This document shows positions 48,700 to 61,434 of a stretch of DNA of 64,000 nt, one piece after another. The position numbers and the translations under genes were made by a program. Positions within the stretch are counted from its first letter, which is position 1, and each line of letters begins with the position of its first letter. Origin of the DNA: an uncultured Phycisphaerales bacterium (lineage in GTDB: Bacteria > Planctomycetota > Phycisphaerae > Sedimentisphaerales > Anaerobacaceae). The DNA lies in the NCBI GenBank assembly GCA_963718665.1, contig OY970359.1, positions 160,001 to 224,000 on the forward strand, read 5' to 3'. Below the pieces are notes generated by a model. It was not told where the DNA came from, did no database searches, and was given only the letters and a program-made list of their open reading frames with translations.

Positions 48700-48880
48700 G
48701 CGCAGCGTCATTCCGAGCGAAGTCGAGGAATCTGTTAAAATCTTTTGCCCTTGGCATCCTTATCCGTATTTAGTATTTGTAGGGCATGTTTTCCCCCGCC
48801 TCCGGCGGCTTCCGAATATACGACACGTAGCGAAGCGCAGGGCCCGCTTCGGCAATACTAACGACTATCGACTACTAACT
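48700..48880. repeat. Cluster of REP-like fragments and heptamer tracts
   Basis: GTCATTCCGAGCGAAGTCGAGGAATC palindrome; CCGCCTCCGGCGG; ACTAACG ACTATCG ACTACTA. Confidence 0.6.
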
Positions 48881-48986: not shown

Positions 48987-49736
48987 ATGAAGTCAATCAG
49001 AGCAATTCTGGCAGTCGCGGCACTTGCGGTCGTTTTGTCGGCATCGGTTGTGATAGCGGCCCAGGGCGTTACCGGCGAATGGAATTTCACAAGCAAATTC
49101 GAGGCCATGACATCTGACGCGACAATGACAATTACCAAAAACGCGGACGGCAAATACACCGGGACGTGGTCAGCGCAATGGGGTGAAAGCACACTATCGG
49201 ATATTACGGCAGATGCCGGCAAAGTTAAATTCACCCAGACCAGCAACTTCGGCGGCCAGGATATGAAAACCTCTTACGAAGGCACTCTCGAAGGCGGAAA
49301 ACTCAAGGGCGCAGCCAAAGGCCCCTGGGGTGAGTTTACTTTTGAAGGAACTCGCGGAGAAACAAAAAACCAGGCAGACCCCCTCGTCGGCGAATGGCAA
49401 ATGAATATTATGATCCCAGCCAGAGAAATCGTTGAGAAATTGACCATAACCCAAAACGCCGATGGCAACCTCGCAGGTAAATGGGAAGGAATGCGTGGTG
49501 GAGAAAATACAATCTCCAATTTGAAATTCGCCGACGGCAAACTGACGTTTACGCGCACCAGCAAAATGGGCGGCAACGACTTTACATCGACCTTCACGGG
49601 CACTGTTACAGGCGACACGATAAAGGGCTCTTTCAGCAGTGACTTTGGCGAAAGGGAAGCAACCGCCTCGCGCGCCGCCGCTAAAATGGAAATGCCAAAG
49701 GCCGAACCAAATAAACCCCCTCCCCCCAAAAGATAG
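48987..49736 (+). CDS. Secreted protein with two repeated beta domains
   Basis: Signal peptide; two units of GEW..TIT.NADG...G.W....GE.T.S......GK..FT.TS..GG.D. Confidence 0.85.
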   Translation: MKSIRAILAVAALAVVLSASVVIAAQGVTGEWNFTSKFEAMTSDATMTITKNADGKYTGTWSAQWGESTLSDITADAGKVKFTQTSNFGGQDMKTSYEGTLEGGKLKGAAKGPWGEFTFEGTRGETKNQADPLVGEWQMNIMIPAREIVEKLTITQNADGNLAGKWEGMRGGENTISNLKFADGKLTFTRTSKMGGNDFTSTFTGTVTGDTIKGSFSSDFGEREATASRAAAKMEMPKAEPNKPPPPKR

Positions 49737-49756: not shown

Positions 49757-49798
49757 TATTTAGCCCCGTCATCATCGCCGAAGGCGTGTGACGGGGTT
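49757..49798 (+). repeat. REP-like palindrome, family A (copies at 50764-50802 inverted, 51327-51610, 51715-51756, 61399-61428 inverted)
   Basis: Shared arms TTTAGCCCCGYCA...TGRCGGGGTT around variable internal hairpins. Confidence 0.85.
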
Positions 49799-50182
49799 TT
49801 GGTATGCTGTTAATTTAGGCAATTTAATCATCCCCCATCGCCAAGAGCTACGGCGGGACAGGCACGCTCACACGCGAGGGTCAAAAAAAATCCGGCGACT
49901 CTCTAAATATTTTTTTATTCTTTACAGCAAAAGAACTTACCGATTTTGGGCATAAAAATAATATGTCGTAACTCCTTAAAACCCACGCAATTTCACCCTA
50001 TATATAGAGGGACGTTGTTCCTCTGTAGCAGCGCAGAAGCACAAAACATTTCGCCCCGGGTGGGCACGGTCGCAGGAACAGAAGTTCCATTTCGGATTTC
50101 AATTAAACCAGAAAAACTCTGTGAACTCTGTGCCCTCTGTGGCTGAAAAATTTGCTCTGTGGCAAGAAAGGGAGAGGACAGT

Positions 50183-50764
50183 ATGTTTGCACAACTAATA
50201 AAGATTCAAAATTGTCTCGACTTTATTATCACCTGTCCACTGCTCGCCTGTCGCCTGTTCCGTTATGGCTACACCTTCCGCAAAATCGACATCGGCGAAG
50301 GTTATTTCACGCTCGTCGAGCCGCGCGACTATTACCGAATCAGACGCTTCAAATGGTGTGTTTGGGGAAACGGTAGTAAATTTTACGCTGTCAGAATTAT
50401 GGTAACTGGGCCGGGAAAGACAAAGATAATGTATTTACACAGACAGTTATTGAATGCGCCCAAGGGGGTTTTGGTTGACCATAGAAATCGCGACCCATTG
50501 GATAACCGCCGAGAAAATCTGCGGTTCGCGACACAGTCAGAGAATATGCAAAACAGGGGCAAAAGAAAAAATGGCACCTCGAAATTCATCGGCGTATGGT
50601 TTGTGAAGGTAAAAGGAAAATGGGAAAGCAGAATCACCCATAAAGGCAAACTAATATACATCGGCTGCTTCGACTCCGAAATCGACGCCGCCCGCGCCTA
50701 TGACGCCGCCGCAAAAAAATTTCGCGGGGAATTCGCGAGGTTGAACTTTCCGGAAAATACTTGA
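50183..50764 (+). CDS. HNH endonuclease with C-terminal AP2 DNA-binding domain
   Basis: YLHRQLL..VDHRNRDPLDNRRENLR..SEN..N (HNH); SKFIGV..KWESRI..IYIGCFDSEIDAARAYDAAA..GEFARLNFP (AP2). Confidence 0.92.
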   Translation: MFAQLIKIQNCLDFIITCPLLACRLFRYGYTFRKIDIGEGYFTLVEPRDYYRIRRFKWCVWGNGSKFYAVRIMVTGPGKTKIMYLHRQLLNAPKGVLVDHRNRDPLDNRRENLRFATQSENMQNRGKRKNGTSKFIGVWFVKVKGKWESRITHKGKLIYIGCFDSEIDAARAYDAAAKKFRGEFARLNFPENT

Positions 50765-50798
50765 ACCCCGTCACTCGCCGGGGGCGGAGATGACAGGG

Positions 50799-51257
50799 CT
50801 AATTATTCTTGCGGTGATTTTTATTTACATAATTGATTTTTATTTGAAGGGTATTCGCGTCGAAACAATATCGTTTATTAAAGCCGGCCGTCCATACCCG
50901 GCCCCGCATTCCATTTTTACGAAGCGCATACACGGCACAACTCTTGTATCGCTGCACAACAATCCCGATTGGCTTGGGAATATATTCCGCCACAAGGTGA
51001 ACATGCTTTGCGCAAACCGACAGGGCATAAATTCGCTGGCCCAACTGAATCGCTTGTTGCCGGATGGCCTCTGCCGCAATCCGTCGCTGGTTAAAAGACA
51101 ACTGCACCGCGTCTTTCGTAAGCGCCTTTGAATTTGCGTCCGCCAGTTCTTCATTTGGGGGCATAATTTCCCCGTCTTTGGAATATTTGCGTTTGTCCCC
51201 TTGCAGCCAGCTTCCGTAGGTTGTCCACGTCACCATATATCCGATTGTCTTCGCCAT
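50799..51257 (-). mobile_element. REP-associated tyrosine transposase-like (HUH/Y1) gene
   Basis: GYMVTWTTYGSWLQGD, HVH metal motif, WTAG..KRY, catalytic Tyr in INYV; palindromes on both sides. Confidence 0.8.
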
Positions 51258-51336
51258 ATCGCAAATTTTATGAAATCATATTTTCTTTTTCAATTGATAT
51301 TTAACGTTCTTCCTCATCCATATAATATTTAGCCCC

Positions 51337-51526
51337 GCCATCTCCGGCTTGCCCGAAAGGGCAAGACGAGTGGCGGGGTTAATTTGTCGTTCCCCTGCCA
51401 TCTCCGGCTTGCCCGAAAGGGCAAGACGAGTGGCGGGGTTAATTTGTCGTTCCCCTGCCATCTCCGGCTTGCCCGAAAGGGCAAGACGAGTGGCGGGGTT
51501 AATTTGTCGTTCCCCTGCCATCTCCG
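51337..51526 (+). repeat. Perfect 60-bp tandem repeat, about 3.2 copies
   Basis: Unit GCCATCTCCGGCTTGCCCGAAAGGGCAAGACGAGTGGCGGGGTTAATTTGTCGTTCCCCT; consecutive 60-base lines are identical. Confidence 0.97.
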
Positions 51527-51981
51527 CCCGCCTGCCCTCGAATGTTTTTGTCGGGGGTGGCGAGCCTGTCCCGCCGTAGTCCCTTAGGGACGAAGGGGGA
51601 TGGCAGGGTTAATTTCGCGTGTGATGGGGTTTATCCGCCGCAGGCAGATTACACAATGAACGCCCGCATCGGGCGTTTGTATTTACCACCATACCGCCGA
51701 CCTTGTCGGCGGCGTATTTAGCCCCGCCATCTCCGCCCTTGGCGAGTGGCGGGGTTATTTAATCTTATGACGGGGTTTTTGAAATTGTGTGGCAGGGTTA
51801 CTTTCGCAACGCAGGCAACTCCCGTAAGGGATGCTGCAACAACGATTTTTACACAAAAAACTGGTCTGGTCCCTGACAGAAGACCCCCTGTGGGGCAGGC
51901 AGAGGAGCATCCACCTTGGGATCTGCGCTGCGCTCCGAGGGGCGGGGAAAAACGGCTGATGGCCCCATTATTCCGACAAGG

Positions 51982-53664
51982 TCATTTTGCCGCTTTAGCA
52001 GCGGTTCGTATCATTTCTGCGATCTTCCCTTGTTTGTGCTTGTATGCAATGTCCAAAGCTGTCATATCATCACGGTCTTTGATGCTAGTATTAGCCCCTG
52101 CCTTAAGTAGCATCTCTGCTACATCGGCACTTCCTAGAAAAGTAGCTATCATTAACGCGGTCTGACCAGATATATCTTTGAGATCAGGATTTGCGCCAGA
52201 TTCAAGCAGGAGTTTGCATACTTCGATATTTTTGTAACGCGCACCGTACATTAGTGGTGTAATTCCGTGTACATTCCCCATGTCTGGGTTTGCACCAGCA
52301 TCTAACAATAACCGCATAATCTGCGGATAACCCTGCGCCGCGGCCATCAAAAGAGCTGTCCAGCCAGCTTCTGCTCGTTCATTGACATCGAGGTTCTTTT
52401 GTTGCAAGATATCTCGTACTTGCTGTTCTTGACCGTGCTCAACAGCTCTGTGCAGCAAATGCTCAGCATAATGCTCAGCATATTGATCACTCATACTTTT
52501 TATTACGGCTTGATTGATTGCGAAGGATAATAATTTCCGGGGTGTCTCGTTATCCTGATCAGGGTGAGCGCTGATATACTCCTCCGCATAGCTCTCCACA
52601 AGATTGATGGGAATTGTGATTTCCCGATTGCCATCCTTAGGATTTTCAGGAATGCACAGAACTCGGAGTGCTTCCTTCTTACTATGCAGATTTTGAATCC
52701 TGACACCACGGTTCTCGGGGCTCTCATTCTTTGGATTGTCGTCTTTGTGATATATTAGGAGTTTAATATCCTCCAATGGTATGACACGGAAGTTAATTGG
52801 AGTTTGGGATTGTGTGTCCGAGAATTTCTCCCGTATTGTCTTCTGGATAGCCTGAGGATCTATGACCTTAGAATCTGCATTTATAGGAAGACCAACATTT
52901 TGGGCAGCCTGTTTGCCATATTTATGCAGAAAATAGAAATAGTCGTGGGGATCAAAGATTATTGTCTTTAACTGAACAATACGTTTACGGTAAGGAACAT
53001 GATTTCCTTCTTTATCTTGACTGAAACAAAGTGATGCTACTCGTGGTCCAAGCATGAAAAGATATGCAAAAGTAACGAGGCAAGGGCCTATTACCTGGAG
53101 TACCATTGGTGTGAAGTACCAAAGCACATAGTAGGTAACCATCAGAACAATAACTATAGGAATCGACATCTTGAACACTGCGCGGGTGGCCACAGGCACA
53201 CGGGAAAGATTAATGGCCTTGGCTTCCACCTGGGTCCGAATCATAAGCGAAGCAAATGCTACAACCGACACAAATAAGCCAATGAGAAAACCAACTGCAA
53301 TGAATATGAAATACCATGCCGGTAATACGTCTGCAAAAGAGGTGTTTGCTGCGATAAGTGAATAACTTAACCAGAGTGCCACACAGGAGAAAAGTATTGT
53401 AAGCCCAACATGTAATCGTGCCCGATATAAACGATGCGATAAATGCATCCATTCCCAAATAAGATATAATGTGGCGGCTACAAGCATCGCTGCGACAAAA
53501 CGTGAGTAAAGCTGCTGATTCTCCAAAGTTACATTGAGTATTGGTAAAGTCTGAGAAGGAGCAAGACCTAAAAAGCGCGCGAGTAAAAGAATCCCTCCGA
53601 GCACCCAGATTAACACCTCTGCTTTGTAGGGTACTGCCGACAAATCTGTCTTGATATCATCCAT
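51982..53664 (-). CDS. Membrane protein with C-terminal ankyrin repeats
   Basis: About 6 TM segments, then GWTALLMAA, GITPLMYGA, GQTALMIA, MTALDIA. Confidence 0.88.
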   Translation of the reverse strand: MDDIKTDLSAVPYKAEVLIWVLGGILLLARFLGLAPSQTLPILNVTLENQQLYSRFVAAMLVAATLYLIWEWMHLSHRLYRARLHVGLTILFSCVALWLSYSLIAANTSFADVLPAWYFIFIAVGFLIGLFVSVVAFASLMIRTQVEAKAINLSRVPVATRAVFKMSIPIVIVLMVTYYVLWYFTPMVLQVIGPCLVTFAYLFMLGPRVASLCFSQDKEGNHVPYRKRIVQLKTIIFDPHDYFYFLHKYGKQAAQNVGLPINADSKVIDPQAIQKTIREKFSDTQSQTPINFRVIPLEDIKLLIYHKDDNPKNESPENRGVRIQNLHSKKEALRVLCIPENPKDGNREITIPINLVESYAEEYISAHPDQDNETPRKLLSFAINQAVIKSMSDQYAEHYAEHLLHRAVEHGQEQQVRDILQQKNLDVNERAEAGWTALLMAAAQGYPQIMRLLLDAGANPDMGNVHGITPLMYGARYKNIEVCKLLLESGANPDLKDISGQTALMIATFLGSADVAEMLLKAGANTSIKDRDDMTALDIAYKHKQGKIAEMIRTAAKAAK

Positions 53665-61175: not shown

Positions 61176-61434
61176 TGATATTCTCCTTTCGTTACCCTTC
61201 TGTAGGTTTCTGCCTTTGCATCTTGTATCTTTTGTCCGAAACAAGTTTAAACCCGATTTATTTGAGCAGAATATCAGATATACACGCCACCGGCAAGGCC
61301 AGTGGTTTAAGGTTAAGCATTCCTCGCGAAGGATTTAAGATTTAAAATTTCCGAAGCGGGTTCGTCGCTTCGCTCCGTGTGAGATTTGAGAAATAACAAA
61401 CCCCCACCGCGCGGGGTGGGGGCTAAATCAGAAT

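Follow-up and report, generated by a model that had tools for sequence, protein, structure and literature searches.

The HNH-AP2 endonuclease gene in the window (the whole stretch of DNA that was analysed, 64,000 nucleotides) belongs to a multicopy chromosomal family whose copies share a conserved upstream element (UE), are under purifying selection and sit at fixed sites within a halo of short repeats that reaches about 12 kb. At these sites occupants are swapped between genomes, chimeric genes and scars of gene 3' ends are found, cargo genes move from site to site, and a transposase lies tail-to-tail with the nuclease gene more often than expected. The association of the two genes is real and repeated, and its partners change. 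The original prediction read the locus as a composite unit of two nucleases: that reading is partly supported and the sequence observation itself holds, while the larger feature (the multicopy family, its UE, the fixed sites and the repeat halo) had been missed.

The locus in the window and its REPtron

The window comes from genome G000 (2.6 Mb, 94.6% complete), to which all C1 coordinates refer. The locus is laid out as follows, in window positions:

49757..49798 (+): TTAG-foot REP (family A), kept at the orthologous G015 site, where the transposase is absent
49829..49867 (+): family-B repeat, a minor genome-wide repeat and no conserved end of an element
49872..50012 (+): UE of the HNH-AP2 family, subtype 1 (nhmmer match, E 4e-32)
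50013..50182 (+): leader, a mosaic of short repeat modules in common with other HNH-AP2 leaders
50183..50764 (+): HNH-AP2 endonuclease, 193 aa, with HNH_3 and AP2 Pfam matches
50735..50764 (+): HNH-AP2 3' end (GEFARLNF codons), the REPtron join point, where paralogue homology ends and scars recur
50764..50802 (-): the REPtron's right-hand REP with a TTAG foot, which overlaps the two stop codons
50799..51257 (-): Y1 HUH transposase, 152 aa, related to class 3 TnpA_Y1
51327..51612 (+): BIME-like REP array on the left-hand side, made of three 60-nt units plus a composite REP in which family B is nested at 51560-51604
51715..51756 (+): TTAG-foot REP
51895..51940 (+): relic like the end of HNH-AP2 leaders, 83% identical to a G017 leader; possibly the trace of a former HNH-AP2 position
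51982..53664 (-): ankyrin-repeat cargo gene; homologous genes sit at two more HNH-AP2 sites (G015 and G019)

As had been claimed, the HNH-AP2 ORF (50183-50764, +) and the Y1 HUH ORF (50799-51257, -) converge on a palindrome (50764-50802) that touches both stop codons: its first base also belongs to the HNH stop (TGA), and the transposase stop (TAG) lies inside its TTAG foot. Contigs from two runs of one study span this junction with zero differences, so it is not an assembly artefact. The family-A copies listed at 49757, 51327 (three tandem 60-nt units), 51512-51610 and 51715 are all there, with folding energies of -10.7 to -25.4 kcal/mol; the distant copy at 61399 has the TTAG foot and a CCCC/GGGG stem but lacks the CCCCGYCA arm. 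The two inverted family-B copies also exist, as a 20-nt, 95% inverted repeat (49848-49867 and 51560-51579) with the second nested in a family-A copy. As the ends of an element they had to be given up: family B is missing at six of six comparable loci and has five clear copies among 11 pattern matches genome-wide, and it is therefore no element end.

The HUH protein carries H85-x-H87, W122 and Y143, and its matches to Y1_Tnp (E 0.002) and to NF047646, REP_Tyr_transpos (E 2.5e-6; 27 bits, cut-off 80), both fall under the curated cut-offs, as does that to NF033573, IS200 (21.6 bits, cut-off 55). It lacks the sequence marks of a class 2 REPtron (TnpA_REP/RAYT): the foot is TTAG, not GT[AG]G, and the motifs are WT and YV, not WQ/WE and Y..NP. 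Class 3 TnpA_Y1 is closer, with the NHVH consensus (KHVH in the window), WT, an extended conserved N-terminus and a Planctomycete host, but YVNKN replaces the YV[VI][AENY]EQ tail and TTAG the CnGA foot. Because a protein 29% identical to it (L035) shows the class 3 tail as YVIFEQ, the window transposase is placed in a sister subfamily of class 3. Inverted TTAG-foot hairpins flank its relatives on the 5' side in 67/73 cases and on the 3' side in 55/80, among the best 80 of 450 loci. G000 holds three transposase copies, 20 strict-sense family-A arms, 33 TTAG-REP clusters and 48 TTAG-type hairpins, compared with 3-5 in three shuffles. Thus the motifs, together with inverted flanking and dispersed TTAG hairpins, identify a REPtron of this sister subfamily with family A as its REP, in keeping with the original assignment of a REP-associated transposase. 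We rejected an IS605/IS1341-type composite: the partner HNH-AP2 is not TnpB/IscB, is convergent and is not co-inherited, and the NF033573 score is as given above.

Elsewhere in the genome, a cluster of TTAGCCCGTGAGATAA hairpins (C1:1835173-1842443) lies within a long HNH-free stretch, with no transposase of the searched family nearby. Upstream of the window locus, further repeat types are crowded at 48708-48856, between rplM and the gene for a 249-aa protein, and form part of the halo; one of them may be akin to GIY-YIG/Ssn-type repeats, which it resembles. The 249-aa protein itself (48987-49736) looks secreted, has two lipocalin-like repeats and is kept upstream of the window site in four congeners; Shiga StxB identity was discarded, the NCBIfam matches of about 18 bits (cut-offs 175-203) being judged spurious.

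The HNH-AP2 family and its shared sites

In the window protein an HNH domain (HNH_3, E 1e-9) is followed by an AP2 domain (E 7e-8), with the catalytic residues intact. An N-terminal helix (2-28) leads into an I-HmuI-like beta region with the HNH, and the AP2 domain is C-terminal; D99, H100, N108, N112 and N121 are invariant in 63 HNH-AP2 sequences. The structure predicted from a deep alignment (pLDDT 93.7) resembles I-HmuI in the nuclease part (Z 5.6 over 77 residues) and shows an AP2 domain (Z 9.2); I-HmuI is also matched by sequence (E 7e-5). By tblastn and HMM, G000 has 27 paralogous loci, 25 intact and two frameshifted, which are 38-60% identical to the window gene, with no within-genome pair closer than 66-79%. 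Pooled dN/dS is 0.17 over 22 orthologue pairs, and the copies are under purifying selection. Of 151 genomes from the order, 64 have the family at E<=1e-25, many with at least 10-22 matches, and 21 of 23 congeners have 2-32 matches; copy number among congeners runs from 0 found up to 32, with 5-10 matches even in 95-97% complete genomes. A known defence system was set aside, PADLOC having returned just a weak "HEase" match.

Two side observations concern the proteins. In genomes G052, G061, G093 and G047 there is another HNH-AP2-like group, more distant and of shorter length (only residues ~70-190 are matched), and it too is multicopy in family f5. At C1:891855-895442 (-) and orthologous sites the HNH-AP2 frame stays open into the next gene, giving 1170-1925 aa in several genomes, which suggests candidate fusions or read-through.

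Ahead of the genes stands the UE, about 150 nt long; its subtype 1, the form in the window, has A/T tracts, an AAG(A/G/C)ACTTA box, a GCGCAAG(T)-like motif and the 3' terminus TATATATAGAGG. The UE precedes 20 of the 27 G000 loci and 56 of 63 congener copies; among 20 loci sampled in other genera and families, it can be detected at 11. There are 21 matches in G000, and 20 of them lie 94-410 nt upstream of an HNH-AP2 start; because 20 of the 21 matches themselves went into building the profile, only the rarity of solo copies is informative. A solo UE with a repeat leader and no HNH-AP2 behind it is found at C1:1659871-1660023. A known RNA was dropped as its identity, Rfam having no match at E<=1; the UE is likely both a promoter and a recombination junction. 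A mosaic of short repeats fills the gap between UE and start codon.

At the other end, paralogue homology stops at the LNF codons and the frames then continue into repeats. Scars of such 3' ends, 27-55 nt long, recur: those of other paralogues lie directly downstream of three of the 27 G000 genes, and a solo scar (C1:1281523-1281563) occupies a site where G022, G002 and G015 have a full HNH-AP2 gene. Relatives at that site carry the full gene, which in many cases faces a convergent transposase across 0-2 kb of cargo.

The sites themselves are shared among congeners. We compared all 63 full-length listed copies in G006 (21), G017 (16), G020 (17) and G015 (9), with locus L041 counted to site S14, not to the window site. 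In 59 of the 63 a flank maps within 9 kb of a G000 copy (chance about 19% per flank), yet only 24 are orthologues, at 80% identity or more to a G000 copy; occupants are therefore swapped at shared sites. Across five genomes the window site is filled by three occupants unrelated to one another: G000 and G015 share a lineage, G006 and G017 have a second, and G020 has a chimeric gene. In G017 identity at this site ends at the 3' end of the UE. Some occupants are inverted or lie a few kb away, one has changed places with its neighbour, and the flanks of several come from two different sites. The 800 kb of G017 that were compared contain a single rearrangement between large synteny blocks, and an HNH-AP2 gene is only 415 bp away from it; the other break was a 30-kb gap. 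No even spacing or replichore bias of the sites was evident on inspection.

Fixed sites are also polymorphic for presence, with new sites in G006 and G017. Bearing on empty-site alleles, one of the checks proposed originally, G015 has an 84%-identical orthologue of the window HNH-AP2 with no transposase and with REP 49757 still in place, and HNH-AP2-empty alleles occur in G017 and G007, with clusters of short repeats at the junction. Ankyrin, restriction-modification-like, TPR-like and IS genes recur at different HNH-AP2 sites (named from sequence inspection, the ankyrin alone by family search). The cargo part of the original idea stands insofar as cargo genes do move between such sites. The genome's sole GxxExxY gene (C1:1520020-1520370) lies about 450 bp downstream of an HNH-AP2, and three of seven near-identical 1044-bp IS copies (C1:501118, 1062252, 1714091, 1951826, 2346691, 2466801 and 2569270) are within 2.4 kb of one. 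G000 also has a ComEC gene, which offers a route for DNA entry.

The transposase was surveyed in the best 80 of 450 loci, which are related and not independent samples. Within this set an HNH-AP2 gene or fragment lies within 1 kb of the transposase at 14 loci (about 1.9 expected), and the tail-to-tail arrangement at up to 260 bp occurs at nine, at sites that are not syntenic (about 0.1 expected). Adjacency thus recurs far above chance, so the refuting condition set originally, which asked for no recurring adjacency, does not hold. Where an HNH-AP2 lies downstream within 1 kb it is convergent in 11/12 cases, as against 35/74 for any neighbour (P 0.001, same set). Each gene is nonetheless mostly alone: 66 of these 80 transposase loci have no HNH-AP2 inside 1 kb, and 26 of the 27 G000 HNH-AP2 loci have no adjacent transposase. 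Each of the three transposases in G000 has an HNH-AP2, or the scar of one, no more than about 7 kb away; around two transposases with 89% identity, the retrieved flanks contain none.

Nor do the partners travel together. A G006 transposase 92% identical to that of the window sits at another chromosomal site beside an HNH-AP2 only 44% identical, the orthologue of another G000 copy that is transposase-free in G000, and at L300 a 94%-identical transposase fragment meets a third paralogue's scar at an unchanged register. Near-identical transposases (92-94%) have therefore met three different HNH-AP2 3' ends in a single junction register; in a second uncoupled pair the identities are 83% and 54%. 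From such re-paired near-identical transposases and the mostly solo genes it follows that partners change, and the pairwise identities of the two proteins are weakly correlated (rho 0.40), driven by host relatedness. The composite, co-inherited two-nuclease unit of the original prediction is not borne out.

Short repeats around the sites

Repeats gather around the family well beyond the immediate flanks. For thirteen hand-picked, unrelated short-repeat types, 87 of 181 sites lie 1-12 kb from an HNH-AP2 gene, against a null of 39.7±8.3 with a maximum of 68 in 1000 circular shifts; the types include what we take, by resemblance, to be SRM/NTS-like repeats. A de novo test that counted intergenic gaps only and ignored immediate flanks agreed (58/308 vs 65/864; OR 2.85, P 1e-7), and the repeat rate drops from 13-26% to 5-8% at 12 kb. 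GGATCC and terminator controls were flat; the other genes considered as controls were too few to serve (four-helix-bundle 3, GxxExxY 1, GIY-YIG 3). We discounted gene density, tRNAs or composition as the source of the halo, as tRNAs, GC3 and gene length do not mark it.

With one repeat each, halos were found in congeners G020 (11/35, P 0.004), G015 (5/14, P 0.003) and G017 (6/17, P 0.017); against this, G014 and G007 each had none of five repeat sites near an HNH-AP2. In other families, where the HNH set takes in partial and divergent matches and the G061 REP list was left out, one repeat each gave 18/25 in G052 (6.0 expected), 9/20 in G047 (3.1), 4/14 in G026 (1.1) and 12/42 in G061 (6.3); G093 (9/20, 5.8 expected), G042 (1/8 and 2/8) and a second G052 repeat (2/5) were not significant. 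Of 37 repeat sites in G017, nine lie near positions occupied in G000 only (12% expected) and ten near neither (70% expected). The repeats round sites that are empty in G017 fit a fossil halo and, equally, a property of the region.

The idea that the halos are zones of foreign DNA found no support. Identity to G017 is 90.9-91.3% inside and 90.8-91.4% outside, and indels number 23 per 147 kb inside and 51 per 443 kb outside; because neither differs clearly, there is no sign of extra foreign DNA in them. Two further repeats were seen: six copies of a ~140-160-nt repeat, 2-4 kb apart, at C1:616153-630239 and 2229526, and, with no tie to the HNH-AP2 halos, a dispersed ~150-nt repeat with TGTATGACTTCAAAAGCC.../AAAAAAACTCATCCGATG motifs (C1:794132-829332, 1425466, 1682405, 1690897 and 2110215) that may be attC-like or promoter-like.

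Explanations and known relatives

The explanation we favour, with moderate confidence, is that these are chromosomal free-standing homing endonucleases whose sites serve as landing and swapping pads, the REPtron being a passenger biased to the 3' end. We infer all of its enzymatic steps. About 30 chromosomal sites would each be held by a unit of UE, repeat-mosaic leader, HNH-AP2 gene and 3' junction. Each nuclease, given its I-HmuI-like fold, would nick or cut DNA near its own gene, with targets that differ among paralogues. Recombination repair could then find shared homology in the UE and in the gene's final ~40 nt, swapping occupants and downstream cargo between sites and sometimes rearranging the chromosome. 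The repair tracts, up to about 12 kb on each side, would expose single-stranded DNA and drag linked DNA along, and ssDNA-hairpin elements (the REPtron) and other short repeats would build up there. A REPtron once joined to an HNH-AP2 3' end might reach other sites by HUH strand transfer or by crossover within that end, so that direct cooperation of nuclease and transposase would be unnecessary. Several results count against this reading: the unremarkable identity and indel rate inside halos, the genomes with no or no significant halo, the repeats round sites empty in G017, the two 89%-identical transposases with no HNH-AP2 in their flanks, and TTAG REPs standing alone at HNH 3' ends, which favour neither strand (6 vs 7 of 95). 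Related genomes, moreover, do not count as independent samples.

A more active picture, which we put forward only tentatively, is chromosome-wide shuffling in Sedimentisphaerales, in which some 30 UE/HNH-AP2 platforms would nick local DNA, open single-stranded tracts of about 12 kb to either side and trade both occupants and cargo by way of the UE and the gene's 3' end, with the TTAG REPtron specifically targeting the HNH-AP2 3' end as a landing site. Just as doubtful, to our minds, are passive shared hot spots: some 30 regions would tolerate or attract insertions on their own, through local supercoiling, expression or relaxed selection, all parts being independent and the nuclease causing nothing. 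Such regions would account for the repeats that remain round HNH-AP2-empty sites, for the defence-like and IS cargo that collects there and for the REP clusters within 700 bp of an HNH-AP2 (9/33 in G000, a rate similar to that of the transposase), but they leave unexplained the 11/12 convergent bias among the best 80 of 450 loci, the one junction register on three HNH tails, the sharp edge at about 12 kb and the purifying selection on the copies; the halos' indifference to tRNAs, GC3 and gene length also speaks against them.

It is unlikely, we think, that the host has domesticated the system and needs its sites, with HNH-AP2 binding the UE or repeats and either releasing about 10-12 kb for exchange by origin-like nicking or organising the nucleoid. 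A UE kept across families of the order and nearly never without its gene (20/21), sites that any paralogue can fill, a dN/dS like that of a core gene and a halo of limited length would all suit a host function; a copy number that ranges from 0 found to 32 among congeners (5-10 in 95-97% complete genomes), the irregular spacing and the lack of mosaic identity inside halos do not. Gene-transfer-agent packaging was set aside on two marker families, terminase (PF03237) and capsid (PF05065), neither of which has a match in the 94.6% complete genome, and this too weakens the case for domestication. Least probable of all is a dedicated mobile unit of two nucleases, with family-B inverted repeats at its ends, that makes REPs or captures cargo: the nine tail-to-tail loci (best 80 of 450), one site where transposases 57-77% related keep facing an HNH lineage tail-to-tail across 0-2 kb of variable cargo, and the weak, host-driven identity correlation are outweighed by partners that are not co-inherited (92/44% and 83/54% transposase/HNH identity), by genes that mostly stand alone, by the missing family B and by a UE and a REP (49757) that belong to the site and not to the transposase, so that a fixed unit is already largely refuted.

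The folds of both proteins are known ones; for the way the system is organised (UE, shared sites, swapped occupants, halo) we found no description in the open-access literature. There, HNH-AP2 and multicopy AP2+HNH led to plant or phage work, and REP-associated tyrosine transposases with palindromes and HNH, or Sedimentisphaerales with HNH, led to nothing. Magnani et al. (2004) are reportedly tied to the free-standing HNH-AP2 (IPA-HNH) homing endonuclease genes of phages. Such phage genes occur in clusters alongside other nucleases and lie where exchanges begin or end, according to the excerpts available of PMC10055350; the planctomycete genes are like them, and like I-HmuI (PDB 1u3e), in being free-standing with an HNH, a C-terminal AP2 and an I-HmuI-like fold, and like them in clustering with other nucleases and lying at exchange boundaries. 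Measured against the same excerpts, they differ in being chromosomal, in 10-30 copies with an extra N-terminal helix, and in their common UE, swapped occupants at shared sites and 12-kb halo.

The concentration of REPs close to their own transposase is already known (PMC8266576, in extract). Compared with class 3 TnpA_Y1 and REPtrons as the extracts of PMC6006769 and PMC8266576 present them, the window type shares the HuH, W[TA] and Y-V motifs, the extended N-terminal conservation, the Planctomycetota host, the inverted flanking hairpins, the dispersed copies and the several paralogues per genome. It departs from them in lacking the YV..EQ tail (at 152 aa), in changing loci on short time scales with a bias to HNH-AP2 3' ends, and in its TTAG foot where they have CnGA or GTAG, although the class 3 REPs tabulated for PMC6006769 may include some with a TTAG foot. 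Picocyanobacterial TnpA_REP/procA (10.1101/2020.03.09.984088, in part) may serve by analogy as a looser REP-transposase precedent for the pairing: there too a REP transposase repeatedly faces an expanded gene family with no phylogenetic linkage, but here the partner is a nuclease family and the TnpA subclass differs. The Ssn GIY-YIG ssDNA nucleases with SRM/NTS repeats, as far as the extract of PMC11893778 describes them, are likewise small nuclease genes amid short repeats; HNH-AP2, unlike Ssn, has no single cognate flanking palindrome, and a UE and mixed repeats instead.

If the reading is true, a bacterial order that keeps dozens of intact copies at shared sites, each under selection of its own, would be a case of a cellular chromosome shaped by homing-type drive or by the domestication of such drive. 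To our knowledge free-standing homing endonucleases have been studied nearly exclusively in phages and organelles. The halo would be a measurable footprint of short-repeat entry that bears on REP spread and REPtron persistence, and the REPtron, as predicted from its sequence, would add a class-3-like HUH enzyme with a new foot, TTAG. As a natural library, the family would offer small HNH-AP2 nucleases by the hundred, diverged from one another and with targets that are predicted to lie, in all likelihood, within a few kb of their genes.
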